DNA from: a virus | Lineage: Duplodnaviria > Caudoviricetes | IMG/VR virus record: IMGVR_UViG_3300037483_001069 | Coordinates: 1-42,027 of that record | Direction: 5' to 3' (one strand) | DNA length: 42,027 nucleotides | Shown: one piece after another, positions 2,020 through 22,084 of the stretch | How the letters are laid out: each line of letters starts with the position of its first letter | Numbering within the stretch: the first letter of the stretch is position 1 | The notes under the pieces: generated by a model | Told to the model about the DNA's origin: nothing | The model's input: only the letters and a program-made list of their open reading frames with translations | The model's database searches: none | Translations under genes and position numbers: made by a program

Positions 2020-2606
2020 CCGCCGCGTTTGACACCTTCTTCTCTGCCGCCGATCGCGCCATGCACGAGGCGCTCGGCCCGGTCCAGGCCGTCGCCTACC
2101 GCCACCACGGTCTGCGCGACAACACCCGCCGCTCGACGCCGACCCTGACACTGATGGAGGACGCCGCGGCCGGCGCGACCGAGCTGCTGGTCTCTGGCGT
2201 CGGGCTGGTCGGGCTGCTCCCCGCCGCGTGTGTCCTGTCGCTCGCCGGCAACGACTACGACGTGGCGGCCGATGCTCAAGCGGTCGGCAACGTCCTCACC
2301 GTTACCGTCTCGCAGGCGCTGCTCGCTGACGCGGGGGCCGGGGCCCCTGTCACCGTCGCGGCCGGGACCATCCCGCTCGAGGATGCGCTGGTCTTCTCGC
2401 CGCAGGAGCGGCAGCTCAATCCCGCCATCGCCGACCGCATCGTCTTCGGCATCTCGGTCCTGCGGCTGCCCGGCGTCGAGCTGCGCGGCGGCGACACCGT
2501 CACGCTGCCCGACGGCCGCAGCGGTGACCTGCTGGCGATGGGCAATGAGGATGCCGGCGCCTGGGACTTCTACGTCGGCGCGCCGAGCGTCGGGGTGGTG
2601 ATCTGA
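2016..2606 (+). CDS. Putative head-closure/head-tail joining protein (with an inserted beta domain)
   Basis: GTGA overlap with previous stop suggests true start 2016; position between adaptor and neck gene; C-term LRGGDTVTLPDG resembles head-closure proteins. Confidence 0.5.
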   Translation: MTAAFDTFFSAADRAMHEALGPVQAVAYRHHGLRDNTRRSTPTLTLMEDAAAGATELLVSGVGLVGLLPAACVLSLAGNDYDVAADAQAVGNVLTVTVSQALLADAGAGAPVTVAAGTIPLEDALVFSPQERQLNPAIADRIVFGISVLRLPGVELRGGDTVTLPDGRSGDLLAMGNEDAGAWDFYVGAPSVGVVI

Positions 2607-3166
2607 TGGCGACGCGCTACCGGGTGCTGGCGAAGGACTTGACCGACGAACTGCACCGCATCGTCGATCGCCGTTACGTGCCGCGTCTGGGCTCCAGACT
2701 GGTCGCGCACGTCATCACCGCGCTGGCGGTCGAGAACGTCCGGACCTCGCCGGTCGGTCGACCGCGTGCTGGCGTCGGCGCCGGCGGTGTGAAGCTGCCG
2801 CAGAGCCGCCACCCCGGCAAGCTGCGGGCGTCGTGGCGCACCAGCTCAGGCGCCCCGCGCTACGCCAACCTGGCGGACCGTCCGGTCTACCCGGTGCCGG
2901 GCGCGGATGTCTTCTTGGCCCCGTTCGAGTCGGTGACGGCGCCACGGCGCGCCTGGCTGACCAACGACGCCCACAGCCGCGACACCGGCGGTTCGATCTA
3001 CAGCTGGATCGTGGCCGTCTTGGGCCGCGTCATCAGCAGCCGCGGCAGCTGGATCGGCTCGTTGCAGGCGCCGAAGGGGACAGTGCGGCCGTCGATCACC
3101 GCCACCCTGAGCCAGGGCAGGATCATCGCGGCGCGGGCGGGCGCCGAGACGATGGCGAGGATGTGA
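2606..3166 (+). CDS. HK97 gp10-like neck/tail-completion protein
   Basis: Basic protein with TSPV...G.LRASW and S.QAPKG.VR motifs characteristic of this family; TGATG coupling. Confidence 0.75.
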   Translation: MATRYRVLAKDLTDELHRIVDRRYVPRLGSRLVAHVITALAVENVRTSPVGRPRAGVGAGGVKLPQSRHPGKLRASWRTSSGAPRYANLADRPVYPVPGADVFLAPFESVTAPRRAWLTNDAHSRDTGGSIYSWIVAVLGRVISSRGSWIGSLQAPKGTVRPSITATLSQGRIIAARAGAETMARM

Positions 3167-3180
3167 TGGGGGAGCTGTAA

Positions 3181-3711
3181 ATGGCGTCGACTACTAACGT
3201 TGTGGTGCGCCAGGCCACGATCGAGATCCCATCCTGGCTGGTGGAGTTCATGCCCGGGCGGATCACCGGTCGACGCCTGATAATGCTCTACTTCTCTGTC
3301 GCCATGGGCATCGTCGCCATCCCCAGCGTGATATGGCTCACCGGCCTCGAGGCCGTGGTGGCCGTGCTGGTCGCCTTCGCGGGCGGCGCCTCGACCACCG
3401 AACTGGTCAAGCGCTGGCTCGATCGTCGCGAGCGTCGGGTGCACTCCAGCGAGACGGTGGAAGTCCGCCTCATGGACGAGGGCGCCGCCATGCGCGCCCA
3501 GCTACTCACGGAGGCCAGGCTCTCCAGAGACCGCGAGACCGAGGCCGTCGAGCGCGCCCATCAGGCCGAGGTCTCCATCCGCGACGATCGACTCAAGTAC
3601 CTGCAGGCCCGGCTCGCCGCCTACGAGGCCACCGTGGCCGAGCTGAGACGGAGCGCGGGGGAGACCGCCCGTGACCCCTATATCGAAGACGACCACGGCC
3701 CGTACCGGTAG
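3181..3711 (+). CDS. Membrane protein, about 2 TM helices plus C-terminal coiled coil (holin-like or membrane anchor)
   Basis: Hydrophobic stretches LIMLYFSVAMGIVAIPSVIWL and LEAVVAVLVAFAGGA followed by charged heptad-like region; RBS GGGGAG. Confidence 0.55.
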   Translation: MASTTNVVVRQATIEIPSWLVEFMPGRITGRRLIMLYFSVAMGIVAIPSVIWLTGLEAVVAVLVAFAGGASTTELVKRWLDRRERRVHSSETVEVRLMDEGAAMRAQLLTEARLSRDRETEAVERAHQAEVSIRDDRLKYLQARLAAYEATVAELRRSAGETARDPYIEDDHGPYR

Positions 3712-3716
3712 CATCG

Positions 3717-6371
3717 ATGTCACGAACTTGGCAATTCGCATGGGGGATGGTGGTGGTGCTAGCAGCGGCGCCGACCGCCGCTCAGATCTCCGGCATCAGC
3801 CCGAACGCCTTCGGCTCGAAGGTCTGGCGGGAGTCGGTGGCGACAGTGGCTGCCCTGCCCGCCTGCACCAGCGGCGGCGTCGAACAGCAGCGCATCCGCA
3901 CCGTGAGGCCACCCGACGTCGACGCGGGGATCTACTACTGCCCGACCGGCGGCGGGGCATGGGTTGCGCTTGGCGGAGGTGGTGGCGGCGGCTCCACCAC
4001 CCTCGCCGGCCTCACCGACGTCGACGTCACGGGCGCCGCCCTCGGTGAGCCATTGGTGAGCGACGGCGCCGGCAACTGGGGTCCGGCCGCCGCTCCCGCC
4101 ATCCTCGAGGGTGACCCGCCGACTTCGCATGCCGAGTCGCACAAGGTCGGCGGTGACGATCCGCTGCTGGTCGAGGAGCTGGCCACCACCTGCAACACCG
4201 GAGATCTGTTCGAGGGCGCCAGCGGCCTGGTCGAATGCCTCCCCGGCCCGACGGTGACGCCGTCGGCCGGAGCGATCCCCAAGGCCGGCGTCGGTGGCAC
4301 GCTGGATGACGGCTGGCTGAGCCCCGGCATCGCTCGCGACTCCGAGGTTCCGAGCCTGGAGACCGATCCGGGTATCCCGCTGCTCAACCTCGCCAGTTAC
4401 GGGGACATCTGCGCGGCCGGTGAGTCCGCTCGTCGCGACGGCAGCGACGTCGCCAACGAGTGTTTCACCGCGAGCGTCGGCGCCCACTTCGCTCCGTCTA
4501 CGATCGCCACCGATTACGGCGTGACGGACTTTCATGCGCTCGGCGGCACGGATGCGGACACCGCTGTCGGGAAGACCTTCAGCGGGGATGCCACCGTGCT
4601 TGCGACCGCCAGCACTTCGCCCTCCGGGGAGTGTGCACAGTGGGATAGCAGCGGAAACCTGGTAGGCGCTGGCGGCGCGTGCGGTACGGGCGGCGGCGAG
4701 GCGAACACGGCCAGCAACCTCGGTGGTGGGTTGGCGAATTTCGATTCCAAGAACATCGTGGATCTTCGCTTCAATACGTTCGAGCCCGCCGACTTCGACC
4801 TCGCCTCGAACCTGCTGTCGGTCGACGGAACGAAGTGGGCGACCCGCGCTGCCGTGCCCTCCCTCGAGACCGACCCGGGCGTCCCGTTGCTCGCCCTCTC
4901 AGACCTCGGCGATCTCTGCGCTGGCAGCGAGAGCGCCCGCCGGAATGCCGGTGACACCGCCAACGAGTGCTACACCCCAAGCGCGGGAGGTGGCGCCTTC
5001 TCGGATTCCGGCGATCCCATCGTCGCCAACACGACGACGAAGGATCTTCAGCTCGGCGACGGAGCGGCCGTGGTGACCGGCAAGGTGGAGATCGGCGGGG
5101 ACGCCGACCAACCGCAGCTTGTGGTCGAGGGCTTCACTACTCAAACCGGCCCGCTCTTCCTCGTGCAGACGCACGCCGCCGGCGCCTCGCTCTTCGAGGT
5201 CGCCAACGACGGAGCGGTCACCTTCGGGGGTTCGACCAGCGTGATCCAGGGCAACGGCACCGACGATCTCGCCATCGACGCTGCCGGCCAGGCGATCACG
5301 CTGGGAGACGGCGGGACGAATGGCGTCCAGGTGACGGACGCCGGGGCGATGACGGCGATCGGAGCGGGCTCGATCACCGCCACCGCCGTGGCTCCCGACG
5401 CGATCCTGTCCTCGAGCATGGGCGACTCGGATCACGGCGACGTGAGCTGGACGGCCAACGTCGCCGCGGTCGAGAACGTCCAGTGCACGGCCTGCGTCGG
5501 CGCGGGCGAGGTGGATGACGGGGCGGCCGCCTCAACCTTCGCCCTGTTCTCCGGAGGGGCTGGGGCGGCGAGCTTCCGCGCCATCGCGGACGGCGACGTG
5601 CCAGACACCATCACGGTCGATCTCGCGACCACAGCGACGACCGCCACAACGGCGAACGCCGGAGACTCCGCCACTGCCTTTTTCGCGGCCGGGCAGATCG
5701 AGCCGGCTCGCGGCGGAACCGGAATCGACAGCAGCGGATCGACCGGCGTGCTCCGGGTCGCGGCCGGGACCTGGTCCGCCAACGCCGGGGTTTCGCACCT
5801 CGCCAGCTCGACCTCCGCGGACCTCGCCGGCGTGCTCTCGGACGAGACCGGTACCGGTGTCGCCGTCTTCGCCGCCGACCCGGCGCTCACCGGGAACCCG
5901 ACCGTGCCCACGGCCAGCGCGAACGACGACGACACGTCCGCTGCGAGCACTGCCTACGTACAGGGCGAGATCAACGGCTCTGGGGGTCGGTCGCTGACCT
6001 GCGCGAGCGGGAACTGCGATGCCGACGTGGAGCTGTACCGAGATACGAAAATTATCAACATCGACCCAACTGCGACTACTACGGACTGGTTTTTCTTCCG
6101 GACCGAGTCGGCAATCACCATCACCGGCATCGACTGCATCGTAGACGCCGCGACCTCGGTAGTCCTCACGCTCCGGGAGTGCGACGCGAACGGTGGTAGT
6201 TGTGCTGCGACGGAGGCCGCGATAACCTGCGCGACCACGAATACCACGGAGGCTGCGGGCATCGACGATGCCGTTGTCGCGGCCGGGGTGTGGATGCGGG
6301 TCCTCCGCGGTACGGTCACCGGCTCGCCGACGCAGGCAGTGTTCTCCGTCATTTTCGAGGTGGCCGACTGA
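3717..6371 (+). CDS. Tail-fibre-like protein with N-terminal Sec-type signal peptide, Cys-rich
   Basis: N-term MSRTWQFAWGMVVVLAAAPTAA|Q; fibre motifs GSTTLAGLTDV, SHAESHKVGGDD, GEANTASNLG, RGGTG, SDETGTG..VFA..P.LTGNPTVPTA...ASTAYV; 18 Cys mostly in local pairs. Confidence 0.7.
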   Translation: MSRTWQFAWGMVVVLAAAPTAAQISGISPNAFGSKVWRESVATVAALPACTSGGVEQQRIRTVRPPDVDAGIYYCPTGGGAWVALGGGGGGGSTTLAGLTDVDVTGAALGEPLVSDGAGNWGPAAAPAILEGDPPTSHAESHKVGGDDPLLVEELATTCNTGDLFEGASGLVECLPGPTVTPSAGAIPKAGVGGTLDDGWLSPGIARDSEVPSLETDPGIPLLNLASYGDICAAGESARRDGSDVANECFTASVGAHFAPSTIATDYGVTDFHALGGTDADTAVGKTFSGDATVLATASTSPSGECAQWDSSGNLVGAGGACGTGGGEANTASNLGGGLANFDSKNIVDLRFNTFEPADFDLASNLLSVDGTKWATRAAVPSLETDPGVPLLALSDLGDLCAGSESARRNAGDTANECYTPSAGGGAFSDSGDPIVANTTTKDLQLGDGAAVVTGKVEIGGDADQPQLVVEGFTTQTGPLFLVQTHAAGASLFEVANDGAVTFGGSTSVIQGNGTDDLAIDAAGQAITLGDGGTNGVQVTDAGAMTAIGAGSITATAVAPDAILSSSMGDSDHGDVSWTANVAAVENVQCTACVGAGEVDDGAAASTFALFSGGAGAASFRAIADGDVPDTITVDLATTATTATTANAGDSATAFFAAGQIEPARGGTGIDSSGSTGVLRVAAGTWSANAGVSHLASSTSADLAGVLSDETGTGVAVFAADPALTGNPTVPTASANDDDTSAASTAYVQGEINGSGGRSLTCASGNCDADVELYRDTKIINIDPTATTTDWFFFRTESAITITGIDCIVDAATSVVLTLRECDANGGSCAATEAAITCATTNTTEAAGIDDAVVAAGVWMRVLRGTVTGSPTQAVFSVIFEVAD
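4347..4976 (+). repeat. Internal duplication (about 41 aa) within the 884-aa protein
   Basis: VPSLETDPGIPLLNLASYGDICAAGESARRDGSDVANECFT (about 4347-4469) vs VPSLETDPGVPLLALSDLGDLCAGSESARRNAGDTANECYT (about 4854-4976). Confidence 0.9.
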
Positions 6372-7228
6372 TGTTCACGCGCAGAGACCTGCTCAAGGCC
6401 CTGCCTCTCAGCTTGGCGTTGCCGGCTGGCGCGCAGACGCTCCTCCGTGGCGTCTCGGTGCGGGGCACGAGGATCGGCCCACCATTCGACCCCCTGCTCA
6501 TCCCCGGCGTCACGGCCGTCTCCTACGTGGATATCGCCGACCTGGGGGCCGGCCTGGTAGCTACGTGGCCCAATCGTGGAACGCTAGGGGTAGATTTCAC
6601 GGCGTTCGCGGGGGCTGAACCTACCGTGGCGACGGCTTTTGATGGGCTTCCCGCCGTGACCTGGGATGCTGCTACCGACTGGATGAGATGCTTGGTGGAT
6701 GAGAGTCTTCTCAGGTTCCTCTACAACACTTCCTGGACCGCATCGTGGTCTATCGTCGCCGAGACCATTCCCGCCGGAGCGCTCTACTCTTGGGCCTCTG
6801 GAGGCAACACTCCCTCGCATGCCGGCCCGGCCTGCTTCCTGGGGGGCAGCTCACAGGGAGGGACATTCTCGCATCGTCACGTCTTTTTTCTGGCCAACGG
6901 CACAACCACCGCGACACTCTGCAATCCGCAGCTCACTACCCCGATTGCCCACGTCTTCCGGCTGGACTTCGATCCTGTCGGCACCCCTAAGGGAAGTGTC
7001 TACGTGGATGGGACTTTGATCCAGACTTACACCGGGGCCTTCACCCCAGCGGACGTGGCTGGACAGAACCTCGGCCTGTGGTTTGGACGGTACTATGCAG
7101 GGCCATCTGGCTACGGGATCGGTCCCTGCCGACACCACCTTCTACTCACTCCCAAGGTTTCAGCCTCAGTTGGGATTCAGCTTGACAACTGGGCTAAGTC
7201 TAGGTTCCTGGAGCCGGTGACCGTATGA
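6371..7228 (+). CDS. Tat-signal protein with probable LamG/concanavalin-A-like lectin domain
   Basis: Start at TGATG overlap gives MFTRRDLLKALPLSLALPAGA|Q (twin-arginine consensus); W.N.G...F...P......G.PAV.W and VYVDG..L.FG patterns resemble LamG-like domains. Confidence 0.65.
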   Translation: MFTRRDLLKALPLSLALPAGAQTLLRGVSVRGTRIGPPFDPLLIPGVTAVSYVDIADLGAGLVATWPNRGTLGVDFTAFAGAEPTVATAFDGLPAVTWDAATDWMRCLVDESLLRFLYNTSWTASWSIVAETIPAGALYSWASGGNTPSHAGPACFLGGSSQGGTFSHRHVFFLANGTTTATLCNPQLTTPIAHVFRLDFDPVGTPKGSVYVDGTLIQTYTGAFTPADVAGQNLGLWFGRYYAGPSGYGIGPCRHHLLLTPKVSASVGIQLDNWAKSRFLEPVTV

Positions 7229-8268
7229 GCATCAAGATCGGGACGCTCTACACGGTGCTCGACGGGGCGTTGCTCGGGCTCTACGACTACCCGAGCTTCC
7301 CACAGCTCGTGAGGGACGATGAGAACAGCCTCTTCTACCTCTTCTATGATCACCGCCAGAACCATTCTGCGACGGACTCTCCTTCAGCCGTTCGTCTCCT
7401 GAAGCGCGCCACCTCCGCAGCGGTCGGAAGCCCGTGGTCCGATCCTATCGAGATCGTCGCCGAAGACGGAGCTCCGCTCCGGGCCTTTCTCGGAGCTTCC
7501 CTGTTGGCTGCCAACGGGGATCTTCTTGTCGTCACCGGCGCTATTGATGTTGGCCCTCCATACGCGGCGGTATACACGCTTCGGAAGTCCACTGACCAGG
7601 GCGAGTCCTGGTCAACCGTCTCAACGGTTTTGGCACGGTTCACTGATCCATCACACACAACATGCCTTTTCGAGTTTGGTGGGAATCTATACTCTGCGCA
7701 GTACGCTTCAATATCACCGAATTATCAGTCCGGTCTTGTGGTCTCCGCGGACGGCGGGGTCAATTGGGCTGTATCGGATATGATCTGGAACGGCGGCACG
7801 GATTCCACTTTGCCAGAAGAACCAGTTGCCATTGTTCTTAGCGACGGATCACTGCTGGTGCTGACCCGTGATGATTCAACCCCGGCCTTTGCCGGCGAGA
7901 CCATCAGGGCTCAGCGCGTGACTGCTATTGGCGGTACGTGGCCCGTCCCCGGCTGGGTGACTCGCGGGTTGGCTCGTCCCGGCATGTGTCAGCTCTCTAA
8001 CGGAGCTATCTTGGTGGTGACCCGCAACGCTGTCACCCAGATGATGTATGGTACAACTGTCGAGCCGATGGTCTTCGCGATGAGACTCACCGCCACTGGC
8101 AAGGTGGTCCACTTCGGGAAGCCGGCATTCTTCGGACTTGCCGGTCGCGGGCAAGAGTATGGTGATGCCAAACCATACTCTGCCAACCAAGCCCTTGTTG
8201 TGTGGGCCGACGAGTCTGGCCCTGGCGGTACGTGTATGATCCGGGAGTGCTTGGTGAGGGTGAGCTGA
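7225..8268 (+). CDS. Sialidase-like/BNR (Asp-box) beta-propeller protein
   Basis: Asp-boxes KSTDQGESW and VSADGGVNW, WSDP, EP....LSDGSLLVLTR, RP....LSNG; no signal peptide. Confidence 0.75.
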   Translation: MSIKIGTLYTVLDGALLGLYDYPSFPQLVRDDENSLFYLFYDHRQNHSATDSPSAVRLLKRATSAAVGSPWSDPIEIVAEDGAPLRAFLGASLLAANGDLLVVTGAIDVGPPYAAVYTLRKSTDQGESWSTVSTVLARFTDPSHTTCLFEFGGNLYSAQYASISPNYQSGLVVSADGGVNWAVSDMIWNGGTDSTLPEEPVAIVLSDGSLLVLTRDDSTPAFAGETIRAQRVTAIGGTWPVPGWVTRGLARPGMCQLSNGAILVVTRNAVTQMMYGTTVEPMVFAMRLTATGKVVHFGKPAFFGLAGRGQEYGDAKPYSANQALVVWADESGPGGTCMIRECLVRVS

Positions 8269-8984
8269 TGACGGCGAGAGCCCTAATCCTTCTCCTCCTC
8301 CTTGCCGCGACTCCTCTTGGCGCGGCCACCCGCCTGTACTTCCCGGCTACGACCGCCGCCGGCGTGTCGCCCGCGGCGGATTCCGGATGGGAGGATGCGA
8401 CAGAGATCGAGCGCCGGGAGTTGGCGCACGTCAAGAATTCCAGCTCCATCACCATCGGGCAGGTGGTGGACATTATTGTGGACAGCGGAGATCAGGATCT
8501 CGACCGGCAGTACGTGTCGAACCCGATGAACGCCGGGATCGTCTTTACCACGGCGGTGACGACCGTAAGACTGGTCGTCATGACTCGCGAGTACGCCGCT
8601 ACCGATGATGTGACCATGTGCATCATCGGAATCCGAGTCGCGAACGAGGCGGGCACCCCACAGGCCACCCTTCTCGCCACGGCGAACTACGGGCCGGTGG
8701 CCGAGTTCGTCAACAACGTGACGCACCGGAACAAGCAGTGCGCCGATGGCGATACGGTCACGAGCACGTATACCACGGCGGCCGGCGACCGCCTCGTTGT
8801 TGAGATCAGCTACCAGACCGATGGCGCCGATACCTCGCCCCAGGCTTCGGCGAAGTGGGGCGAGAACGCGACCGACTGCGCCGAGAATGAGAGCAATACC
8901 GCGAACTGCGCCGGGTGGATTGAGTTCTCCAACACGATCACGTTTCAGGCGGCGGCCAGTCGCCGCGTAATGGTGATCCAGTGA
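8268..8984 (+). CDS. Signal-peptide-bearing beta-rich protein
   Basis: Start at TGATG overlap: MTARALILLLLLAATPLGA|ATRLYF; 4 Cys; AGDRLVVEI motif seen in phage structural beta-sandwich domains. Confidence 0.65.
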   Translation: MTARALILLLLLAATPLGAATRLYFPATTAAGVSPAADSGWEDATEIERRELAHVKNSSSITIGQVVDIIVDSGDQDLDRQYVSNPMNAGIVFTTAVTTVRLVVMTREYAATDDVTMCIIGIRVANEAGTPQATLLATANYGPVAEFVNNVTHRNKQCADGDTVTSTYTTAAGDRLVVEISYQTDGADTSPQASAKWGENATDCAENESNTANCAGWIEFSNTITFQAAASRRVMVIQ

Positions 8985-9928
8985 CCACCCAGCTTTACAT
9001 CCCGCAGACGACGACCGGCTTGGTCCTCGCCGATCTGAACGTCCGGTTGTACTCGCTCGCCGGAGTCCGACAGACCGGCGCCGAGGGCGCGTTGGCGCTC
9101 GCCCCCGCGACGGCGGGCGGGCACTACTACCTGACGGGCGTGCCGCCTAGTTGCTGGGTGATATGGGAGTATCCCGCCGGCGTCGGCTACGGCGAGCGCG
9201 TCGGCACCGCGGCCGGCGCGCCGCCGGTGGTGGTGCTGCCTTTCCGGGAGGCCGGCTTGCTGCTCGCCGACCTCGGCCCGCCGGCGTTGCTGAAGGACGG
9301 CGCCGAGCAGGGCGACGCGCTGGCACTGGCCGAGATCGGGGGCGCGGACCCGGGAGACTATGCGCTGTCGGGCTGGCCGGTGGACGAGGCCGGCTCGTGG
9401 TCGGTGATCTGGACGCGGGATGGAGAGATCGCCGGCGCGTGGTCCTGGCAGGGAATGGCAGCCGCAGCCGGCGGCGCCGACACCTCCTTTGAGGGCCGCG
9501 ACGCCGAGGACCTGGCGGCGTTCATGGACGGCTTCACGCCGACCGGCTTGGGTAGCGGCTACCTCCGGATCTTCTCTCCGGCCGAAGACGCCGGCAAGCC
9601 GCAGCCGACGACCGACCCCGACAACCCCCGCATCTTCGGGACGTGGGCTGCTGACTACACCCGCGACCACGACCCGGTGATGGAGGCGGCCAGCCCGCCG
9701 ACTCGCTACGGCCGCCTGATCGTCGTCGCCCTGATGGAGCAGTCGCCCCGGGCTGGATTCATCATCGGCGAGGATGGCCTGTTCTCGCAGTTGCGCGCCG
9801 CCGCCGCGGTCCGCGACGTGGTCGACGGCTTCCAGTTCCTGCCCCAGGCAGGCAACGGCGAGGGTCCCGACGTCCAGCCGCCGTGGGCCGTCTACTCCCT
9901 GCAAATCCCCTTCATCTCGACCGGATAG
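8981..9928 (+). CDS. Two repeated N-terminal beta domains fused to a possible tail terminator domain
   Basis: Repeat GL.LADL...GAE..ALALA...G.Y.L.G.P...W.VIW occurs twice; C-terminal about 150 aa (GRLIVVAL..., W....LQIPF) and position before tail tube genes suggest a tail terminator. Confidence 0.45.
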   Translation: MTTQLYIPQTTTGLVLADLNVRLYSLAGVRQTGAEGALALAPATAGGHYYLTGVPPSCWVIWEYPAGVGYGERVGTAAGAPPVVVLPFREAGLLLADLGPPALLKDGAEQGDALALAEIGGADPGDYALSGWPVDEAGSWSVIWTRDGEIAGAWSWQGMAAAAGGADTSFEGRDAEDLAAFMDGFTPTGLGSGYLRIFSPAEDAGKPQPTTDPDNPRIFGTWAADYTRDHDPVMEAASPPTRYGRLIVVALMEQSPRAGFIIGEDGLFSQLRAAAAVRDVVDGFQFLPQAGNGEGPDVQPPWAVYSLQIPFISTG

Positions 9929-9937
9929 GAGGCCCGC

Positions 9938-10171
9938 ATGCGACGCGCGACCTTCACCACTGACTACCCGCCCTGGACGGTCGGGACGGTCGTCACCACC
10001 GACCCCGCCGCCGAGGCGTCGGCGGCCGTCGTCGACCCCGTCCGCTTCGCCAAGCTGGTGGAGATCGGGGCGGCGGCGGAAGACGGCGCCGAAGCGCCAG
10101 AGAGCGATACCGAAACCGCACCATCGCGCAAGCGCCGCAAGCGCACCGCAAAGATGAGGAGCCACCGATGA
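9938..10171 (+). CDS. Small hypothetical protein preceding tail tube genes
   Basis: RBS AGGAGG; ATGA coupling to next gene. Confidence 0.6.
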   Translation: MRRATFTTDYPPWTVGTVVTTDPAAEASAAVVDPVRFAKLVEIGAAAEDGAEAPESDTETAPSRKRRKRTAKMRSHR

Positions 10172-10941
10172 CCGTCAAGTCAGTACTGCTCGACCGCTAC
10201 TTCACCATCGGCGGCTACCGCTTCAGCTGGGTCGCCAACCGAGTGGAGCCGAACTTCACCCGCTCGCAGGTCGACGACAGCTCCACCGAGGACCTGACAG
10301 ACGTGATCGTCAAGGGCCAGAACTCCGGGACCCTGGTGATCGCCGGCGCCGCCACGTCCTCCGCCGAGAAGCAGGCCCTCGCCGCGATCAAGGCAGAGAC
10401 CGCCTACAGTCTGATCCTCGGCCTCCGGCGCGGCGCGGCGGTAGGCGACGCTGCCCTCATCAACGACTTCCAGTTCTTCCGATTCGGCAAGACCGGGGCG
10501 CTGAACGAGCTGTCCGGCTTCGAGCTCGAGGGCCGCGCCGACACCATGCCCCGCATCGGGACGATGATGTGGCGCGACCTGCCGAGCGGGGCGGGCACCA
10601 CCGCGCCGTCCGACGGAACCGGTATCAACCTCGGCGCGATCGGCGCCGGCCAGATCGGGCGGTTCGCGCTGGCTGCGATGGCGCCGCCGGGGCTCTCCGG
10701 CACCGCCCCCACCTTCGACGTCGTGCTCGAATCCGACAGCGCCGACACCTGGGCCGGCGGCGAGATCCAGCGCGGCGCCTTCACCCAGATCGACGCCGCC
10801 CCGTTCTCGGAAGTCATCGAGATCGATGGCGACGCAACCCCGGTGACCGACGGCTGGTGGCGCCTGCGCGTTAATGCCGTCGGCGGCACCGGCTCACCCA
10901 AGGCGTACCTCTTCGCGGCCGGGGTGGTCGCGAGCAAGTAA
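10168..10941 (+). CDS. Tail tube-like protein with C-terminal accessory beta domain
   Basis: N-term IGGY.FS..AN.VE...T...VD.S....VKG.NSGTL.IAG resembles siphovirus tube proteins; position before chaperone and tape measure. Confidence 0.55.
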   Translation: MTVKSVLLDRYFTIGGYRFSWVANRVEPNFTRSQVDDSSTEDLTDVIVKGQNSGTLVIAGAATSSAEKQALAAIKAETAYSLILGLRRGAAVGDAALINDFQFFRFGKTGALNELSGFELEGRADTMPRIGTMMWRDLPSGAGTTAPSDGTGINLGAIGAGQIGRFALAAMAPPGLSGTAPTFDVVLESDSADTWAGGEIQRGAFTQIDAAPFSEVIEIDGDATPVTDGWWRLRVNAVGGTGSPKAYLFAAGVVASK

Positions 10942-10953
10942 GGAGACACGACA

Positions 10954-11409
10954 ATGACGACCAAGCGAGCCCTGACCGACAGCTACATCCTCTGGGGCGG
11001 GACCGACCGCAGCAACCAGTTCGGCAGCTTCATGCCGAACAGCGTCCGCGCGCAGATCGAGGACTCGGTCTTCGGCTCGTCGACGGACACCATCGCGCCC
11101 GGTACCTTCGCCCACGAGACCGCCGCCACCCTCCGTCCGGACGCCGACCAAGTCTTTCTCAAGGTGATGCTCAATCAGTACATCGGCGAGGCGGCGGTGG
11201 CGGTCGTGTACCAGCAGAAGGACGCCAGCGGGCCGACCGCTCCCGGCACGGCGGAGGCGAACTACCCGACGATGAGCTTCAGCGTTCAGGTGACCGAGGC
11301 GCCGCCCCTCGGCGGCGCCCGGAACACGCTGATCGAGAAGCAGGTGACGTACAAGATCGTGACGCCGATCACCTGGTACGACGGCACGACCACGATCGTC
11401 ATCGGGTAG
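10954..11409 (+). CDS. Major tail tube protein (putative)
   Basis: Strong RBS TAAGGAG; 151 aa; GGTD.S....S......IEDS.FG and NYP..S motifs of tube proteins. Confidence 0.65.
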   Translation: MTTKRALTDSYILWGGTDRSNQFGSFMPNSVRAQIEDSVFGSSTDTIAPGTFAHETAATLRPDADQVFLKVMLNQYIGEAAVAVVYQQKDASGPTAPGTAEANYPTMSFSVQVTEAPPLGGARNTLIEKQVTYKIVTPITWYDGTTTIVIG

Positions 11410-11580
11410 GGTTGGATCGCCTGCGCGCATCCGCGGGGAGCCTCGGCCCGGTCACGGGTCTCGCCGACGCCCTACTCCGCGCGCGCAGAAGTCGGTGGCC
11501 CCTGGGCGACGCTCAGGCTGAGGCTGGCCACCGGCGGCGATGCTTGAAGAGACCAACCGAGAGACCCGAAGGGAGAGACC

Positions 11581-12351
11581 ATGTTCGACCTTCAGCACTT
11601 CGGAAGGCGGGTAGACACCCGCACCGTCACCGACCCTTGGAACGGGCTCTGGACCTTCACCGTTCGCCGCGCCGGCTATCCAGCGTGGGCGGCCTGGGAG
11701 AAGAAAAGCCCAGCGGCCGAGAGTGCGGCCATCATGACCCGGGCGATGACCAAAGTGATGGCCGAAGAGCAGATCGTCAAGCCCGGCATGCGGCAGCAGA
11801 AGCACCGCCGTAAGGCGGCGCGCGCCGCCATCAACGACGAGGCGCTGGCGCGGACCATTCAGCGCGCGGTCGGCAGCCTCACGGCCGAACAGATGGAGGC
11901 CATGCAGCAGACCGAGGCGCTGAACGCCGCCAAGACCGGCTTGGCGCTCTTCGGACTGGTGGACTGGACCGTCACCGCCGGTAGGGTGGTGATGCCGTGC
12001 TCGATCGAGAACCGGTTGCGGCTGCTCGGATACGAGGGTCGGTGGTTGCGCGTCGCGGATGCCAACGACGAGACCGGAGAGGGTCATCAGTTTGTCGGGC
12101 CGGGCGAGGTGGCGACCATGATGCCGAACGCAACGGAGATCGTCTTCGACGGCGGCCCCTACAACCCAGACAGATCCGCCGTCTGGGTAGACGACCCCGA
12201 GAACTACGGCCCCGCCACCTTCGGCGACGCCGTGACGAAGTGGCTGCTGGATGAGGCAGAAGACGCCGAGGCCTTCGCCCAGCGAGAGGAGGCGACGGCC
12301 GCCGAGGGTTTAGGCGCTACGCCCTCTGGCGAGTCCGCATCAGCGGTCTGA
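11581..12351 (+). CDS. Tail assembly chaperone (lambda gpG analogue)
   Basis: Lies between tail tube and tape measure; LVDW.V....PCS.EN motif; slippery site near 3' end. Confidence 0.75.
   Translation: MFDLQHFGRRVDTRTVTDPWNGLWTFTVRRAGYPAWAAWEKKSPAAESAAIMTRAMTKVMAEEQIVKPGMRQQKHRRKAARAAINDEALARTIQRAVGSLTAEQMEAMQQTEALNAAKTGLALFGLVDWTVTAGRVVMPCSIENRLRLLGYEGRWLRVADANDETGEGHQFVGPGEVATMMPNATEIVFDGGPYNPDRSAVWVDDPENYGPATFGDAVTKWLLDEAEDAEAFAQREEATAAEGLGATPSGESASAV
12306..12312 (+). promoter_or_regulatory. Programmed -1 ribosomal frameshift site G GGT TTA
   Basis: X XXY YYZ heptamer in correct phase (gaG GGT TTA); the -1 frame is open from here to the stop at 12869. Confidence 0.85.
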
Positions 12352-12869: not shown

Positions 12870-15800
12870 ATGGATAGCGGTCCGGCCTTCGACGTCGCGC
12901 TGGTGCTCGACCCGGCCGGGTACGAGGCCGGGGCGAAGCGGGTCCAGAAGGCGAGCGGCACCGCCGGCGGGTCCGTCTCCAACCTGAGCCGCCACACCGA
13001 CGTCCTCAAGAAGTCCCTGGGCGCGCTCGGCATCGCGGTGTCTGGCGTCGCGCTGGTGCAGCTCGCCAGGCAGTCCGTCCAGCTCGCCGCCACCTTCGAC
13101 CAGTCACTGACGCGGATCACCACCCTGGTCGGCGTCAGCCGCGCTCAGGTGAATGCGTGGGGGCAAGACCTCCTCCGCATCGCCGTAGACGCCGGCCGGA
13201 GCCCCAACGAGCTGGCCAAGGCTCTCTACAACGTCACCTCGGCCGGGCAATCCGGGGCGGCGGCGTTGGAGATCGTGCGCTCGTCGGCCAAGGCCGCGGC
13301 CATCGGGCTGGGCGATACCGACACCGTGGCACGGGCTGTCACCGCGGCGATGAACGCCTACGGCCCGGCGGTGCTGTCGGCCGGCAAGGCCACCGACATC
13401 CTGGTCGGCATCGTCAAGACCGGGGCAGCAGAGGCCGACACCATCGCCCCGGTGCTCGGCCGCGTCGTCGGCATCGCCGCCCAGCTCGGCATCAGCTTCG
13501 AGCAGCTCGGCGCCTTCATCGCCGTCTACACCCGCCTGGGAGTCTCGGCCGAGGAATCGACGACCGCTCTCCGCGGCGTGATGACGACCCTGCTCGGCCC
13601 GACCAAGCTGCAAGAGCAGGCGCTGGCCAGCGTCGGCTTGACGATGGCGAAGCTGCGGCAGGAGATCACCGACAAGGGGCTGGCCGCCGCCCTCGCCGAC
13701 CTGGTCGCCAAGTTCTCAGGCAACGAGGACGCCCTCAATGCAGTCATCCCGAACGTCCGAGCCTTGGCCGGCATCCTCGGCACGGCCGGCTCGCAGGGTG
13801 AGGCGTTCAAGGCTGTCGCCGCCGAGATCTCCGCCGGCATCGGCAAGATCACCGACGAAGCCTTCGACCTGAACCGCGCCGACCCGGCGCAGATCTTCCG
13901 TCGCCTGTCCGCCGCCTGGGAGGCCGCCCAGATTCAGTTCGGCCGCGGCCTGCTCGGCGGACTGACCGAGGGGGCCGGAGACCTGACGCGGTGGCTGGAT
14001 GAAAATGGCGAGCGGATCGCGGCGTTCGGTCGCCAGGTCGGCGAGGTGGCGAAGAAGATCGTCGAGAACATCGACCTGATCCGCTACGCCATCATCGCTC
14101 TGATCGGTCTCAAGGTGGTCGGTTGGGCCACCGCCGCCGCCACGAGCCTCAAGGGGATCGGCTCAGGCGCCACCATCGCCTGGCTTTCCACGATCCCGCT
14201 TAACAAGGAAGGACTGGCCCTGGCGCGGACATGGGCCGGAGTCGTCGCGCTGGACGTCAAGGCCTGGGCGGTGCGCGCATCGGCCGGCCTGGGACCGCTG
14301 GTCCTCGCGATCGTCGCCGTCGGCGTCGTCATCGACCAGGTGATCGACAAGTGGAAGGCGCTGCTCCAGCAGGACATCACCCGCATCGCCCACTCGACGA
14401 ACCTCTGGGCCGGAACCCTAACGACCCTACGCGACGCGATCCGACAGGGCTACGCCACCGAGTCGCAGCTGCTGGCCATCAACCAGGGGCGGGCGAAGGT
14501 CGTGGCAGAGATCGCCAAGCTACAGGAGCGGATGCCGTTCCTGTCCGGCCGCGAGCGCGACGCCGCTGAAGACACCCTGGAGACGCACAAAAAGCAGCTC
14601 GGCATCATCGACCAGCTGTCGGGCAAGGTTCGCACCCTGCCACGGGTCTATGAAGACACGGTGACCGTCGTCGGCAACTTGAACAAGGCGATCACGAACT
14701 CGATTGGGTTGTCGAAGGAGCAAGCCGGCGCGATCGAAAAGCTGGCTCAGAAGCTCGCTGGTCAGCAGTTCATCGGCCGCGTTCGCGAGATGGCCGAGTT
14801 CTGGGGGACCGACGTCGCCGACGCCGTGGCGGCCGCGACCGTTGAGGTCGAGTTGTGGAATCAGACGCTCGATGCCGGATTCGATCCGCTGTCCGCCGCC
14901 GGCCAACGCTTCTTCGACTTCGCCGGCAAGGTCAAGCTCGCCGAGAACAACCTGCGGGCGGCGGAGCTAGCTGCCGAGGCGGTGAAGGAGGCCTCCGACA
15001 GATTGGCAGAGGCCCCTGAATTGGGGGGTCCGCTCGGCGCCGGACCGAGCGACACCATCGATTCGGCGACCCTGGATAAGCTCACCGCCCAATATCACAA
15101 GATGGTTTCTGGCTGGCGGCTGTCCACGGCCGACATGCGAAAGATCTGGGACAACTTCCTGGAGGGGGTGCAATCGGCGTTCGCCTCCGCCTTCTACGAC
15201 TTGTTCAGCGGGTCACTCAAGGGCTTCGAGGATCTCTGGAAGCGCGTCAAGGAGCTGGCGCTGCGGACGCTGTCGGAGATCGCTGCCAAGTGGGCCACGC
15301 AGACGTTCGTCACGAATGTGACGGACAGCGGCACCGACGGCACGAACAAGATCGACTATAGCAAGCTGGCCTCGGCCGCCGCGAAGGTCGCGCCGTACGC
15401 GGCCGTCGCCGCCATCGTCCTGGGAATCGGGTACGCGATGGGCTGGTGGGGCAGCAGAGGCCGGGAGGGGGTCGCTGGGGTGACCTTCGCCGGCGGCGAC
15501 ATCCTGGACGCCAGCGGCAACCGCAGTAAGAACATCGAGACCGTGATGAAGCACGTGCGGGAGGCGATCAAGGGCATCACCTCCTTCCTGAGCGACGTGG
15601 GTCTGGAGATCGAGAAGTGGGCCGAGGTCGTCGTCTCGAAGCGGAATCAGACCTACTTCATCAACGGCATCCAAATCGCCGCCGGCACCGCCGCCGAGCT
15701 GGAGGACGCCATCGCCGCCATGGCCATCCGTACGGCAACGTTCGGCGACTCGGTCTCGGCGCTAGTCCAGGCGGTCATCCGCGGCAGCTCGGCCCTCACC

Positions 15801-17876
15801 ACCGAGCAGCTCAAGGCTGAGATCGCCTTGGCGCAGCAGGTCGAGAGCTTCGGCCGGACCGAGCTGGAGCAGGCCGTCCGTTCCATCGGCACCGAGATGA
15901 ACGTGATCACGGCGGAGCTGGCGCGGCTCCTGGGCGGCGCCACCGGCGACCTCGGCCAGCTCGCCATCGCGCTGGGCAATACGGCGGCCGAGGAGATCCG
16001 GCGCTGGCAGCAAGCCTTCGACCAGATCACCGGGCGCGTCGAAACGCCCGAGGAGCAGCTCGCTAATCTCCAGGCTCAGGCCCGGGTGTTCAACGCCGAG
16101 CGCCAGCTCCGCATCGCCGACCTCCGGGCTCGCGTCCTCGACCTAGAGGCCCAACGTCAGCTCGCCGAGACTCGCGCCCGCCTCAACCTCCTCGGCCTGA
16201 CGGCGATGGTCCACATCGAGCAGGGCCGGATGAACCTGGAGCGGGCCCGCATCATCGGCCAGCGCACCGTGATCTCGGCGACCGGAGCGCTCTACGCCGC
16301 GGAGGAGCAGCTCGCCGGCGCCCACTTCTCGACCATGGACGCCATCGTCGCGACGGCGGCCACGGCACTCGACATCCAGATCGCGGCGACCAACGAGCTG
16401 ATCGCCTCGCTCCTGGCGATCCCGACCATCGACGTCGCCGGCCTCCAGCTGCCGCGCGGCGCCGGCGGCGGGGGCGGGCGCCGGCAGCAGCGCGCGGACC
16501 TCACTGACCAGCTCCAGCAGATCGTCGATGGCGCAGTGGCGGCCCTCGCCCCGCTGATCGACTCAATCCACCAGATCTCCGATCTCCAGGCCGAGATCGC
16601 CCGTCTGGGACCCGATGCCGATCTCGCCGCCCGGGCGCTGGCGGTCCTGCAACAGCAGCTCGCCGCCCAGATCCAGGACGCCTACCTGACGCTGGCCGAG
16701 CGGCTGGCGACCCTGGTCGGAGACGAGGGCGAGCTGGCCGCCCTCCAAGAGATCCGCTACGACCTCGAGCGCGCACAGCTGGCCGCGCAGGTCGCCGCGT
16801 GGGAGGTCCTGGGTCAGCTCTCCGACGAGCAGCTCGCCACCCTCAACGACCTGCTGTCGCGCCTGCCGGAAGATCTACCCGTCGCCGGCGCCTTCTCGTC
16901 CATGGCCGACGCCCTCGACGCGCTGGGGCTGGGTAGTCGGCAGGCGACCGTCCAATTCGAGCAGATGGCTCGCGCCCTCGACTACATCCGGCAGAACGGG
17001 TCGATCTCGGAGCTGGGGTCGGAGTTCGACCGCGTCATCGGCGAGGTCCGCGACCAGCTGACGCTGACCTTCGGCGACTCGCTCGTCGGCTTCCTCCAGA
17101 AGTACTACGGGGACGTCGCCGGGTTCGAGGATTTCCGCCGCGGGCTGGAGCAGGTCCGCTTTCGGCTCGAGCTGGCTCAACTGCGCGCCCAGTTCATCAT
17201 CCTCCAGGGGATGGGCGTCTTGTCCGACGAGATCATCGCCCAGTTCCGGGCGGTCTTCGACTTCGTCGACGCCAACGAGCCGGACTGGGACGCGCTAGCC
17301 AACACCTCGAACATCGCGGCCACCTCCGTCTCGAGCGTTGCCGACGGCTTCCAGCAGCTCGTCGACCGTCTCGCCCGGGCGAAGATCAGCATCCGGGAGT
17401 TCCTGGACTCGCTTGCCCGCGGCGCCGCCGGTGGGGTGACCCCGGAAGCCGGGTTGGCTGCGGCTCGCCAGCAGTTCCTGGACCTCGTCGCCCGCGCGCA
17501 GGGTGGCGACATCAACGCCATCGAGGGCGCCAGTCAGGCCGCGCAAGACTACCTGGATCTGCTCCGGCAGCAGGAGGCCAGCGGCCCGCTCTTCGTCCAG
17601 GGATTCCAGGAGGTCCAGCGCCTCCTCAATACGCTGCTCAACGTCACGACCGTCCGCGATGGCAACGTCGCGACCAATACCGCGGCCTGGCAGACCAATA
17701 CCCTGCAGACCCTGCAGAGCGGGTTCGGCGACCTCTCTCACCACGGCGGAGAGCAGGTCAGCCTCCAGCGGCAGATGGTCGGAAAGCTCGGCGAAATCGT
17801 CAACGAGCAGAAGGCGCTCGGCCTCAAGATCACCACGCTGGAAGCGCGGGCGAGAACGGTTAAGGCGGCCGCCTGA
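12870..17876 (+). CDS. Tail tape measure protein (TP901-family core)
   Basis: 1668 aa, Ala/Leu/Gln-rich helical; FDQSL......G, ELAKALYNVTSAG, A.AA.IG, TDIL..VK.G, G.SFE, TALRG motifs; central hydrophobic segments. Confidence 0.95.
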   Translation: MDSGPAFDVALVLDPAGYEAGAKRVQKASGTAGGSVSNLSRHTDVLKKSLGALGIAVSGVALVQLARQSVQLAATFDQSLTRITTLVGVSRAQVNAWGQDLLRIAVDAGRSPNELAKALYNVTSAGQSGAAALEIVRSSAKAAAIGLGDTDTVARAVTAAMNAYGPAVLSAGKATDILVGIVKTGAAEADTIAPVLGRVVGIAAQLGISFEQLGAFIAVYTRLGVSAEESTTALRGVMTTLLGPTKLQEQALASVGLTMAKLRQEITDKGLAAALADLVAKFSGNEDALNAVIPNVRALAGILGTAGSQGEAFKAVAAEISAGIGKITDEAFDLNRADPAQIFRRLSAAWEAAQIQFGRGLLGGLTEGAGDLTRWLDENGERIAAFGRQVGEVAKKIVENIDLIRYAIIALIGLKVVGWATAAATSLKGIGSGATIAWLSTIPLNKEGLALARTWAGVVALDVKAWAVRASAGLGPLVLAIVAVGVVIDQVIDKWKALLQQDITRIAHSTNLWAGTLTTLRDAIRQGYATESQLLAINQGRAKVVAEIAKLQERMPFLSGRERDAAEDTLETHKKQLGIIDQLSGKVRTLPRVYEDTVTVVGNLNKAITNSIGLSKEQAGAIEKLAQKLAGQQFIGRVREMAEFWGTDVADAVAAATVEVELWNQTLDAGFDPLSAAGQRFFDFAGKVKLAENNLRAAELAAEAVKEASDRLAEAPELGGPLGAGPSDTIDSATLDKLTAQYHKMVSGWRLSTADMRKIWDNFLEGVQSAFASAFYDLFSGSLKGFEDLWKRVKELALRTLSEIAAKWATQTFVTNVTDSGTDGTNKIDYSKLASAAAKVAPYAAVAAIVLGIGYAMGWWGSRGREGVAGVTFAGGDILDASGNRSKNIETVMKHVREAIKGITSFLSDVGLEIEKWAEVVVSKRNQTYFINGIQIAAGTAAELEDAIAAMAIRTATFGDSVSALVQAVIRGSSALTTEQLKAEIALAQQVESFGRTELEQAVRSIGTEMNVITAELARLLGGATGDLGQLAIALGNTAAEEIRRWQQAFDQITGRVETPEEQLANLQAQARVFNAERQLRIADLRARVLDLEAQRQLAETRARLNLLGLTAMVHIEQGRMNLERARIIGQRTVISATGALYAAEEQLAGAHFSTMDAIVATAATALDIQIAATNELIASLLAIPTIDVAGLQLPRGAGGGGGRRQQRADLTDQLQQIVDGAVAALAPLIDSIHQISDLQAEIARLGPDADLAARALAVLQQQLAAQIQDAYLTLAERLATLVGDEGELAALQEIRYDLERAQLAAQVAAWEVLGQLSDEQLATLNDLLSRLPEDLPVAGAFSSMADALDALGLGSRQATVQFEQMARALDYIRQNGSISELGSEFDRVIGEVRDQLTLTFGDSLVGFLQKYYGDVAGFEDFRRGLEQVRFRLELAQLRAQFIILQGMGVLSDEIIAQFRAVFDFVDANEPDWDALANTSNIAATSVSSVADGFQQLVDRLARAKISIREFLDSLARGAAGGVTPEAGLAAARQQFLDLVARAQGGDINAIEGASQAAQDYLDLLRQQEASGPLFVQGFQEVQRLLNTLLNVTTVRDGNVATNTAAWQTNTLQTLQSGFGDLSHHGGEQVSLQRQMVGKLGEIVNEQKALGLKITTLEARARTVKAAA

Positions 17877-19514: not shown

Positions 19515-20333
19515 ATGGGGAAAGTGTACCTGCTCTCCACCATCAACACCGACCGCCTGCTGAGCCTCACCGCCAGCGAAGAAATCGCGACATTCGAGGT
19601 CGAGAACCTACAGGACCCGCTACCGACCGCGAGGTGGCGATCGACCGGTCTGACCCCCTACGTCGTCGGCCAATTCGCCGAAGCCGTGACCATCGACTTC
19701 TGGGGGGCTTGGTACGTCAACGCCCGCGCTGGCGACCAGGCCCGCCTCCGTCTCGCCAGTTCCCAAGGCGGCCTGACGGCCGCGCCAGACCTCGACACCG
19801 GCATGCTGGACGTCCAGCCCGGCACCGCCAACCTCGACGACTGGTTCGGTCCTGGTCAGCTCGGCTACGTCCACCAGCGCAGCAAGATCGCCGCCGCCGA
19901 TCAGGTCTCGGGCACCTGGTTCCGCATCGACTTCGACTTCACCGGGAATAGCGACGGCTACGTCCAGGCCGGCGCTCTCTTTCTCGCCACGATGCTGGAG
20001 CCCACCCGCGGTGCCGAGCCCGGCTGGGAGTACCGCCCAGTCAACCGCGGCATGCATGAGGTCTCCTACGCCGCCGGCGGAACTGGTCGTGGTGGCGGCG
20101 GACAGAGGCGGGACGTGGTGTTCAAGATCCGGCGCATGACCGAGGCCAACGCCTCTGGCGTGATCAATCCTCTCTTGCGCGAGCGTGCCGGCGTCCTTCC
20201 GGTCGGCATCGTGCTGGACGAGAGCGACGACTACCCCATGGATCACATGTTCTTCGGCTACCTCGATGCGCGGGCGGTGCCGAACACGTTCCTCCGCAAC
20301 TACTCCCTCGACGCGCAGATCACGGAGCCCTGA
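19515..20333 (+). CDS. Tail tip protein (distal tail-like)
   Basis: VENLQ.P....WRS, R/WFRIDF, GYVQAG.LF motifs; within tail operon. Confidence 0.65.
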   Translation: MGKVYLLSTINTDRLLSLTASEEIATFEVENLQDPLPTARWRSTGLTPYVVGQFAEAVTIDFWGAWYVNARAGDQARLRLASSQGGLTAAPDLDTGMLDVQPGTANLDDWFGPGQLGYVHQRSKIAAADQVSGTWFRIDFDFTGNSDGYVQAGALFLATMLEPTRGAEPGWEYRPVNRGMHEVSYAAGGTGRGGGGQRRDVVFKIRRMTEANASGVINPLLRERAGVLPVGIVLDESDDYPMDHMFFGYLDARAVPNTFLRNYSLDAQITEP

Positions 20334-21388: not shown

Positions 21389-21892
21389 ATGGGGAAATGC
21401 GCGATCATCGGTGCGGTTTGCCCCGAAACCGCGGACGCCGCGAAAAAGCTCTACTGCCCACACTGGGCTGACTCGATTCCGGAAGTAGAGCGCGATGGCT
21501 CCGGTCGAATCATCGCCGAGACCTACTACCGCGGCTGCTACCTCCGTCGGCAGGTGCTCTATCAACTCGCCGTGACGGTCGAAGCCGCGCATAGCTCGAA
21601 GGCGTATGCCCAGGCCCGAGAGGTCGTACTCTCGGCCGTGGCTGGTGGCGAACCGCCAGTACTGCGGGCACTTGTTGAGCTAGGGCTGCTGTCACTGGCA
21701 GGCGAGAGGCGAGGCGGGCACCTCGGGGTGCCCGCCAACGATACAGCCGGGCTACTCGGCGATGGACCGCACCAGCAGGACCAGGCGGCGGTCACCGCCG
21801 GGGGCGCGGACGCGGATCACGACGCCGCTCAGGGTGACCACCATCTCGGTGGCGATGCTGCGCGCCTTGCAGGCGAGGTCACCGATCACTAG
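21389..21892 (+). CDS. Hypothetical Cys-rich protein after tail fibre (possible fibre chaperone)
   Basis: RBS GGAGG; C..IG..C...CPHW...GC pattern; 3' part overlaps a convergent gene. Confidence 0.5.
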   Translation: MGKCAIIGAVCPETADAAKKLYCPHWADSIPEVERDGSGRIIAETYYRGCYLRRQVLYQLAVTVEAAHSSKAYAQAREVVLSAVAGGEPPVLRALVELGLLSLAGERRGGHLGVPANDTAGLLGDGPHQQDQAAVTAGGADADHDAAQGDHHLGGDAARLAGEVTDH

Positions 21893-22084
21893 GAAGGTCC
21901 CCTCGTCGGCGTTGATCTCGGCGTAGTCGAGGCCCTTGCCGTCATCGCAGGTGACGGCGGTGCCGGAGCGGACCTCGACCGAGCGGACCTTGACGATGGC
22001 CGCGAATCCGACCTCGGCATCCGCCGCCGGGGCGGCGAGCAAGGCGAGGACGATGGCGACGATGATGCGGGTCTTCGTGATCAT
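21752..22084 (-). CDS. Small exported hypothetical protein
   Basis: RBS AAGGAGG; signal peptide MITKTRIIVAIVLALLAAPAADA; 2 Cys. Confidence 0.6.
   Translation of the reverse strand: MITKTRIIVAIVLALLAAPAADAEVGFAAIVKVRSVEVRSGTAVTCDDGKGLDYAEINADEGTFLVIGDLACKARSIATEMVVTLSGVVIRVRAPGGDRRLVLLVRSIAE

Follow-up and report, generated by a model that had tools for sequence, protein, structure and literature searches.

Leader-bearing fibre- and lectin-like proteins within the structural operon of a tailed-phage genome: candidate secreted host-recognition parts

The sequence considered here, referred to as the window, is an entire virus record (IMG/VR IMGVR_UViG_3300037483_001069; Duplodnaviria, Caudoviricetes), linear, 42,027 bases long and about 56% complete by estimate, and the system in question is a cassette of six tightly packed plus-strand genes, A to F, at positions 3181-9928. 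The data favour a reading by which three of the six products, B, C and E, are probably secreted host-recognition parts, B being a fibre matured in the periplasm and C and E plug-in adhesins, which would be loaded onto the virion at lysis. B (3717-6371) is an 884-residue mosaic fibre with a Sec-type leader; C (6371-7228) is a 285-residue ConA/LamG-like lectin domain with a twin-arginine translocation (Tat)-type leader; and E (8268-8984) is a 238-residue jelly roll of the galactose-binding-domain-like kind, resembling carbohydrate-binding modules (CBMs), with a Sec leader. An earlier note on this DNA had proposed export signals and a fibre-like character across the cassette, with the products either loaded onto virions or displayed on the cell surface. 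The order and lengths of the six genes were confirmed, whereas the broader description held in part: leaders were found on B, E and C, but A, D and F have none and were rejected as exported proteins for that reason, and B is fibre-like, whereas C and E each consist of one globular, lectin-like domain. As to destination, the sequences support export of B and E well, and virion loading is favoured over surface display, which finds less support.

Tailed-phage fibres are normally leaderless and are built in the cytoplasm, and it is from this norm that B departs. Leaders were called with our own heuristic for n-, h- and c-regions, by which 45 of 5,900 internal windows serving as controls (0.8%) were leader-like. 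Conservation of the leader among homologues, a check named in the earlier note, was borne out: in a search with residues 600-884 of B, in which the best 7,991 candidates were scored, 95 of 118 homologues begin with a leader-like segment, and several of the remainder appear to be mis-started or partial. A cleavage site of the A-x-A↓Q type occurs in 58 of the 95, and B itself carries a predicted T-A-A↓Q site after residue 22 (leader at 3717-3782). The number of cysteines is even in 71 of the 95 leader-bearing homologues (p = 1.5e-6), as it also is in 15 of the 23 others. By the same heuristic the leaders of B and E both present a basic n-region, a hydrophobic core and small residues at -3 and -1, the B leader holding one basic residue. 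This last feature, and a public gene call that starts B at Met11 and would remove the n-region of its leader, in line with a caveat of the earlier note that true starts might lie downstream, could mean that wrongly chosen starts, or vestigial sequences, give the appearance of leaders on ordinary cytoplasmic neck fibres; so could the leaderless homologues of C, and the viral contigs in which the E domain mostly forms the N-terminus, without a leader, of long-stalk proteins (12 of 148 anchors leader-like). However, in the closest N-terminal homologue of B (P0116) the same mature start is preceded by a full leader, the start codons of C and E are each coupled to the preceding stop codon, and the frequency of leaders among B homologues relative to controls, together with the leader-cysteine link described below, makes such an artefact very improbable.

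The family of E contains leader-bearing and leaderless forms of one domain. A search returned 69 proteins, E included, which were aligned on a conserved T-R-L-Y-F start; 33 bear a leader, 32 are leaderless, and four unclassed members were left out. In the leader-bearing forms a hydrophobic leader of 12-45 residues ends at T-R-L-Y-F, where the leaderless forms begin, with Ala at -1 in 31 of the 33 and Gln at +1 in 19 of them. With E itself excluded, the pair Cys118/158 is present in 19 of 32 leader-bearing homologues and in none of the 32 leaderless ones, and the pair Cys204/214 in 21 of 32 against 0 of 32, although kinship inflates these counts and p-values overstate their independence; lone cysteines occur in leaderless homologues, once at each pair, and E carries both pairs. 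On the E tree the leader label switches 8 times (7-8 by bootstrap), at least three switches being forced by well-supported branches. It is because of the conservation, the controls and this leader-cysteine correlation that the export of B and E is regarded as well supported. The idea that export serves oxidative folding, also put forward in the earlier note, is sustained in so far as the Cys pairs occur only with a leader, but 10 of the 32 leader-bearing homologues have neither pair, and oxidative folding is therefore not the only reason for export. Disulfides alone were rejected as proof of export, since the particles of phages 7-7-1, Milano and Q-beta have them (PMC12796354 and PMC13576161, in the portions available). 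Alternatively, the leaders may serve to tether fibres at the inner membrane or to slow their folding, so that tails collect fibres at the membrane. Such a role would agree with the position of the gene for membrane protein A directly before B, and with leader-bearing members that lack cysteines, but the conserved small -3 and -1 residues end where the leaderless forms begin, and this, with the confinement of the Cys pairs to leader-bearing forms, renders tethering improbable.

E is modelled (pLDDT 95) as a jelly roll of the galactose-binding-domain-like kind, whose nearest structural match is the CocE/PepX C-terminal domain (Z 11.6, rmsd 2.7, 149 residues aligned), with CBMs next; PHROGs matches among 62 members of the family were few and weak. 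The E domain also occurs, at 29% identity over 96%, in gp27 of the cultured Streptomyces phage Wakanda (NC_070785), which sits in a head-neck block between capsid and head-tail adaptor genes; unlike E, gp27 is leaderless, has one cysteine and another C-terminal tail, and is annotated as hypothetical. In two loci of archaeal-looking cellular context (L105, 969-3914; L095, 1828-4887) the E domain stands at the N-terminus of leader-bearing FN3-type proteins, one of which has a C-terminal membrane segment.

For C, the proposed route is Tat. Tat signals combine a twin-arginine motif with a weakly hydrophobic core and an AxA site, and the C leader contains TRRDLLK, a weakly hydrophobic core and an A-G-A↓Q site after residue 21. 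Only two homologues of C were found among 1.84 billion representatives (30-35% identity), both of them leaderless, and the Tat signal of C may thus not be conserved. The Atlas model of C is ConA/LamG-like (TM-score about 0.7-0.76). Where the leaderless homologue P0190 has an alternating hydrophobic-Gly strand, C has a short N-terminal strand in which the pattern is degenerate. A twin-arginine leader was also seen elsewhere, on an E homologue with a single cysteine that is one of six consecutive genes with leader-like starts (L130, 756-5135).

B is a mosaic rich in Gly, Ala and Thr, and is likely to be a trimeric fibre. Its 18 cysteines can be read as nine local pairs, and an internal repeat (4347-4979; residues 211-252 and 380-421) has 28 of 42 positions identical, each copy with a Cys pair 17 apart. 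A search of the Atlas with the whole of B, for which the model is poor, gave matches all below 0.9. The last 113 residues (6030-6371), recognised by structure model and by homologues and here called the C-terminal domain (CTD), form a small jelly roll (pLDDT 89) that is a candidate docking hub; Cys807/838 is kept in 30 of 31 homologues, and Cys822 and Cys829 in 23 and 25 of the 31, respectively. In the BFVD the CTD matches the C-termini of Mtd_N- and collagen-type phage fibres, and in the PDB it matches phage cement, turret and XepA/YomS domains and the tip of the long tail fibre of Agrobacterium phage 7-7-1, at Z-scores of 9.2-9.4 that stand just modestly above common values. The last of these, gp015 (PDB 9RKV), aligns over 103 residues (Z 9.4, rmsd 2.5, 9% identity) and is a trimer with a triple jelly-roll tip; in contrast to B, its N-terminus is anchored in the baseplate, its shaft is beta-helical, and no leader is mentioned in the available part of its description (PMC12796354).

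How the adhesins might be joined to this tip is suggested by the C-terminus of E, where the arginine-arginine-hydrophobic strand RRVMVIQ (8961-8981) is a candidate docking peptide. Among 1,767 distinct proteins of at least 100 residues in the collected loci, 12 end in such a strand, by a pattern that was defined after the neighbours had been viewed; the genes of 8 of the 12 follow a B-tip gene at a distance of three genes or fewer, and 8 of 14 strong tip genes (that of the window included) are followed by such a protein. In a further locus, found through E (L086), a leader-bearing tip-like gene precedes the gene of a leader-bearing protein whose tail is similar. Within the E family the RR tail is found in 11 of 32 leader-bearing against 0 of 32 leaderless homologues, and the C-termini of P0002-P0069 include 11 of the RR-hydrophobic, 6 of the LGVG and 4 of the GxxRGR type, which suggests that one domain carrying three interchangeable tail types is fitted to different sockets. 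This gene linkage, and an analogy to the head spike of the gene transfer agent RcGTA (base Rcc01079, fibre Rcc01080), point to a socket-and-plug design in which a strand of the adhesin would enter the jelly-roll tip of B. In the available parts of PMC7296036 and PMC10218006, a sugar-binding protein of RcGTA docks on a jelly-roll oligomer by a short terminal hydrophobic-Gly strand, and it is with such a strand that the C homologue P0190 starts. The RcGTA base, however, is a pentamer on the capsid vertices, with export not mentioned in those parts, whereas the jelly roll of B stands at the end of a long fibre. Rcc01079 is not among the PDB matches listed for the CTD, though it is of the same fold class; model NF048002 has no match on B, and the NCBIfam spike models match neither B nor C. 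A leaderless counterpart of the pair was noticed in another locus (L003, 7799-10642), where a tip-like domain (E = 2e-8) directly precedes a leaderless E homologue and probably represents the end, set off by a frameshift, of a long fibre that has no leader.

The association with the virion rests in the first place on where relatives of the module are found. Thirteen loci carry the B tip domain (two, L164 and L165, are near copies, and L161 is the contig of L020); the heuristic calls a leader in nine, and in the remaining four a hydrophobic leader is visible by eye. Phage records or gene blocks of phage type account for eleven of the 13, mostly with a position between tail and lysis genes; nearby genes include T7-like fibre anchors, SU10 portal or adaptor, Gp80, baseplate J and amidases. 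The earlier note had proposed a search for the same neck-cassette-tube arrangement in related phages; the module does recur in phages, but since the relatives mostly carry it between the tail and lysis genes, the neck position of the present cassette looks incidental, and a neck-specific function was rejected. One of these genomes, G001, is complete (direct terminal repeats, 40,459 bases) and is ordered terminase, portal, adaptor, neck, tube, tape measure, a 786-residue protein, a 149-residue protein, a B relative, an E relative and endolysin. Its B relative bears a leader and 40 cysteines and is the sole fibre candidate among genes of at least 90 residues in 40,000 of the 40,459 bases, though the 786-residue protein could bind the receptor. 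The second line of evidence comes from a cultured phage. In Cellulophaga phage phi10:1 (NC_021802), gp091-gp094 are structural proteins annotated in the record from tandem mass spectrometry (MS/MS), and each of the four begins with a Sec-type leader with Gln after it, as opposed to none of the four other MS/MS-annotated proteins tested (gp083, gp087, gp088 and gp090). Their genes are consecutive and stand in the fibre slot, as do relatives of B; the proteins hold 0-2 cysteines each and are not homologous to the CTD or to E, and the record makes no remark on the leaders.

A reading in which the proteins are exported but never reach the virion, serving instead as released or loosely surface-displayed adhesins, receptor-masking decoys or matrix-modifying proteins of the infected or lysogenic cell, is unlikely, though it has more in its favour than the other alternatives. 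Two of the 13 tip loci, in a Binatia metagenome-assembled genome (MAG; L171, 7562-11609, collagen-rich) and an Omnitrophota MAG (L173, 7107-10731), encode a B-tip protein and partner among cellular-looking genes; these are possibly domesticated copies, and a terminase search of four MAGs, which matched one but missed a MAG with a baseplate gene, is uninformative on both. Archaeal FN3 surface proteins carry the E domain, and the phage has a separate leaderless fibre. In addition, G+C content at third codon positions (GC3) is 0.71 in C and 0.66 in D, against 0.85-0.96 in core structural genes, suggesting recent cargo. Exported fibres on cells have a precedent in the Bdellovibrio MAT fibres, which, in the available part of PMC10769870, start with a signal peptide and continue as a trimeric, phage-like fibre of mosaic build whose tips vary. 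These are cellular, share a 130-residue domain after the leader and often end in an S74 chaperone, whereas B is phage-encoded, in a virus record with tail genes, and has no S74 match. Similarly, the accessible text of PMC10367356 describes Q-rule proteins of Porphyromonas gingivalis phages, phage genes whose Sec leaders expose Gln at +1, as having no known function and puts forward that they modify the outer membrane of the host; it does not call them fibres. Against a purely cellular role stand the tight coupling to structural genes and the lack of any sigma-70-type promoter-like site in 2400-11600, a consensus that may not be that of the host; terminator-like sites near the cassette are at chance level in the same scan. 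Lysogenic-conversion morons of the lom, bor and cor type have their own promoter and terminator and a membrane anchor. No lipobox or membrane segment was found in B, C or E (beta-barrels were not searched), and such anchors are almost absent from homologues, with three TM-like (transmembrane) segments and three lipoboxes in the 95 leader-bearing B homologues and none in the 33 leader-bearing E family members. A tyrosine integrase occurs in two of nine carrier records and in one of the five near-complete ones, serine recombinases not having been searched, and in the complete G001 the B relative is the only fibre candidate. Virion loading is thus favoured because of the relatives in the fibre slot, the phage accessory-type character of the leaderless C and E homologues, the scarcity of anchors and the leader-bearing MS/MS proteins of phi10:1, and also because of operon coupling in which no promoter is detectable and of the G001 gene set.

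Several points nonetheless weigh against virion loading of B, C and E. The virion role is a prediction from the genes, and the same phage encodes a leaderless fibre in the usual position (20333-21379; BppL_N, E = 1e-5, just under the cut-off), in which the heuristic, as the earlier note had stated, finds no leader. No known virion-anchor family was recognised in B or in 56 of its homologues, and no match was found in cultured phages to B, its CTD, D, P0188 or P0121. Six of the 14 tip genes have no RR tail downstream, one of them being cut by the contig end, and the G001 E relative, although leader-bearing, has no cysteine. To these may be added matters already described: the cellular-looking surroundings of L171, L173, L095 and L105, the leaderless homologues of C, the lack of homology to the phi10:1 proteins, the modest CTD scores, the retrospective definition of the tail pattern, the effect of kinship, the leader-bearing E homologues with neither Cys pair, and the disulfides of ordinary virions.

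The reading by which B, C and E are loaded onto the virion may be set out as follows. Within the structural operon, as the sequence shows, translation of the genes is coupled. B and E would be exported by Sec and C by Tat, and signal-peptidase cleavage is predicted often to leave Gln at +1. Disulfides could then form from the Cys pairs outside the cytoplasm, as their exclusive co-occurrence with leaders suggests. The RRVMVIQ strand of E, and possibly the N-terminal strand of C, may serve for docking on the B tip. B, more speculatively, would dock on a leaderless virion protein, here possibly through the duplicated domain of F. When the cell lyses, the virion built in the cytoplasm would be joined by the parts folded in the periplasm, a late addition for which P22 tailspikes and T4 fibres are precedents. 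The folds suggest that the finished appendage binds sugars of capsule or exopolysaccharide (EPS), which D perhaps trims.

The remaining three genes are less readily placed. D (7225-8268), in line with the Asp-box propeller of the earlier note, encodes a leaderless 347-residue BNR/Asp-box propeller of sialidase-like type, with two Asp boxes and a BNR_2 match above the cut-off (E = 2e-8); against the neuraminidase of PDB 3H6J (E = 7e-4), residues 25-246 align, including one Glu and one Arg that may belong to a catalytic set. From this resemblance D perhaps trims capsule or EPS sugars, and it may, speculatively, travel with C or join from the cytoplasm. A (3181-3711, 176 residues) has the two internal TM helices (about residues 32-72) and C-terminal coiled coil that had been proposed for it and no cleavable leader; it is a membrane protein, possibly of the holin/antiholin type, that is probably not one of the exported set, and relatives of the module have small TM proteins downstream of it. 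F (8981-9928, 315 residues) is leaderless, with a duplicated N-terminal domain (residues 7-79 and 86-164, 34.5% identity) and a C-terminal half in tail-terminator position. The duplication upholds one half of its description as a repeat/terminator-like fusion, but the terminator label has neither a profile nor a PDB-sequence match and is positional only. No homologue of F was found among 7,995 scored candidates, nor any profile match; its duplicated domain makes it a speculative candidate for the virion-side anchor.

The prevailing view is that tailed-phage particles are assembled entirely in the cytoplasm, and signal-peptide genes of prophages are annotated as lysis or lysogenic-conversion genes. 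The present data raise, tentatively and with rather more doubt than confidence, a wider possibility: a second, extracytoplasmic assembly line in tailed phages of several morphotypes, in which disulfide-stabilised fibres exported by Sec or Tat offer a standard jelly-roll socket, adhesins are plugged in by a seven-residue terminal strand, loading takes place during lysis, and the product is in some phages the sole receptor-binding fibre. The parts are of known kinds, but the export route for tailed-phage fibres is undescribed in the literature covered; the full-text search, judged by titles and the starts of abstracts and with most subscription journals and supplements outside its scope, returned no description of exported tailed-phage fibres. 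If periplasmic maturation and joining at lysis are true, many such signal-peptide genes would encode receptor-binding proteins, virion completion would include an extracytoplasmic step, and phages could exploit oxidative folding and other envelope modifications of the host. Handles offered by the locus are the conserved domain at the tip, the partner tail of seven residues and a family with natural twins, leader-bearing and leaderless, which are testable with small recombinant proteins, and the cultured phi10:1 makes the general claim testable now.

Within the cassette, four of the five junctions overlap (TGATG, ATGA, TGATG and GTGA), A and B being separated by a gap of 5 nt. GC3 is 0.87 in A, 0.84 in B and 0.82 in E; the lower values of C and D, of which that of D is the lowest, make these two look recently added, and F, at 0.90, looks core-like. 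Tail genes follow as had been stated, the gene at 10168-10941 (plus strand) being the major tail protein (phrog_9522, E = 1e-9), with the tape measure protein at 12870-17876 by profile search. The region is present in two sediment-metagenome runs, and public-run contigs, of which run X1 is perhaps the source sample, span neck-A-B, B-C-D and D-E, the E-F junction remaining unspanned. Two named B homologues from Acidobacteria MAGs hint that the host may be related to Acidobacteria. A, B, C, E and F remain unnamed above the cut-off in Pfam, PHROGs and NCBIfam; no significant match to B, the E profile, F or the neck gene came from sequence searches of the PDB; PF04883, PF13554, PF05135, PF13385 and PF00589 are unmatched in the 56%-complete record; and single-protein locus searches with the tail tube and with E returned no matches. 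The 'gp10-like' label of the neck gene found no confirmation, having neither a profile nor a PDB-sequence match, and is positional.

Other genes of the record may be mentioned. In the head-closure position, the gene at 2016-2606 appears by eye to hold an inserted beta-rich domain, another possible attachment site. Right after the ordinary fibre, on the opposite strand, lies a gene for a leader-bearing protein of 110 residues with two cysteines (21752-22084, minus strand). The amidase endolysin (23768-24322; phrog_1493, E = 2e-9) is a lone plus-strand gene in a minus-strand block, distant from the holin-like genes. A 595-residue ParB-domain protein is encoded beside a HerA-like ATPase at 26097-29675 (minus strand), and a tyrosine integrase was not found in the record at its 56% completeness. 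Finally, a predicted lipoprotein (39387-39809), with a lipobox at Cys21-22, six more cysteines and no family match, has a gene with a leader (38429-39274) on one side and a hydrophobic, holin-like one (39950-40429) on the other.

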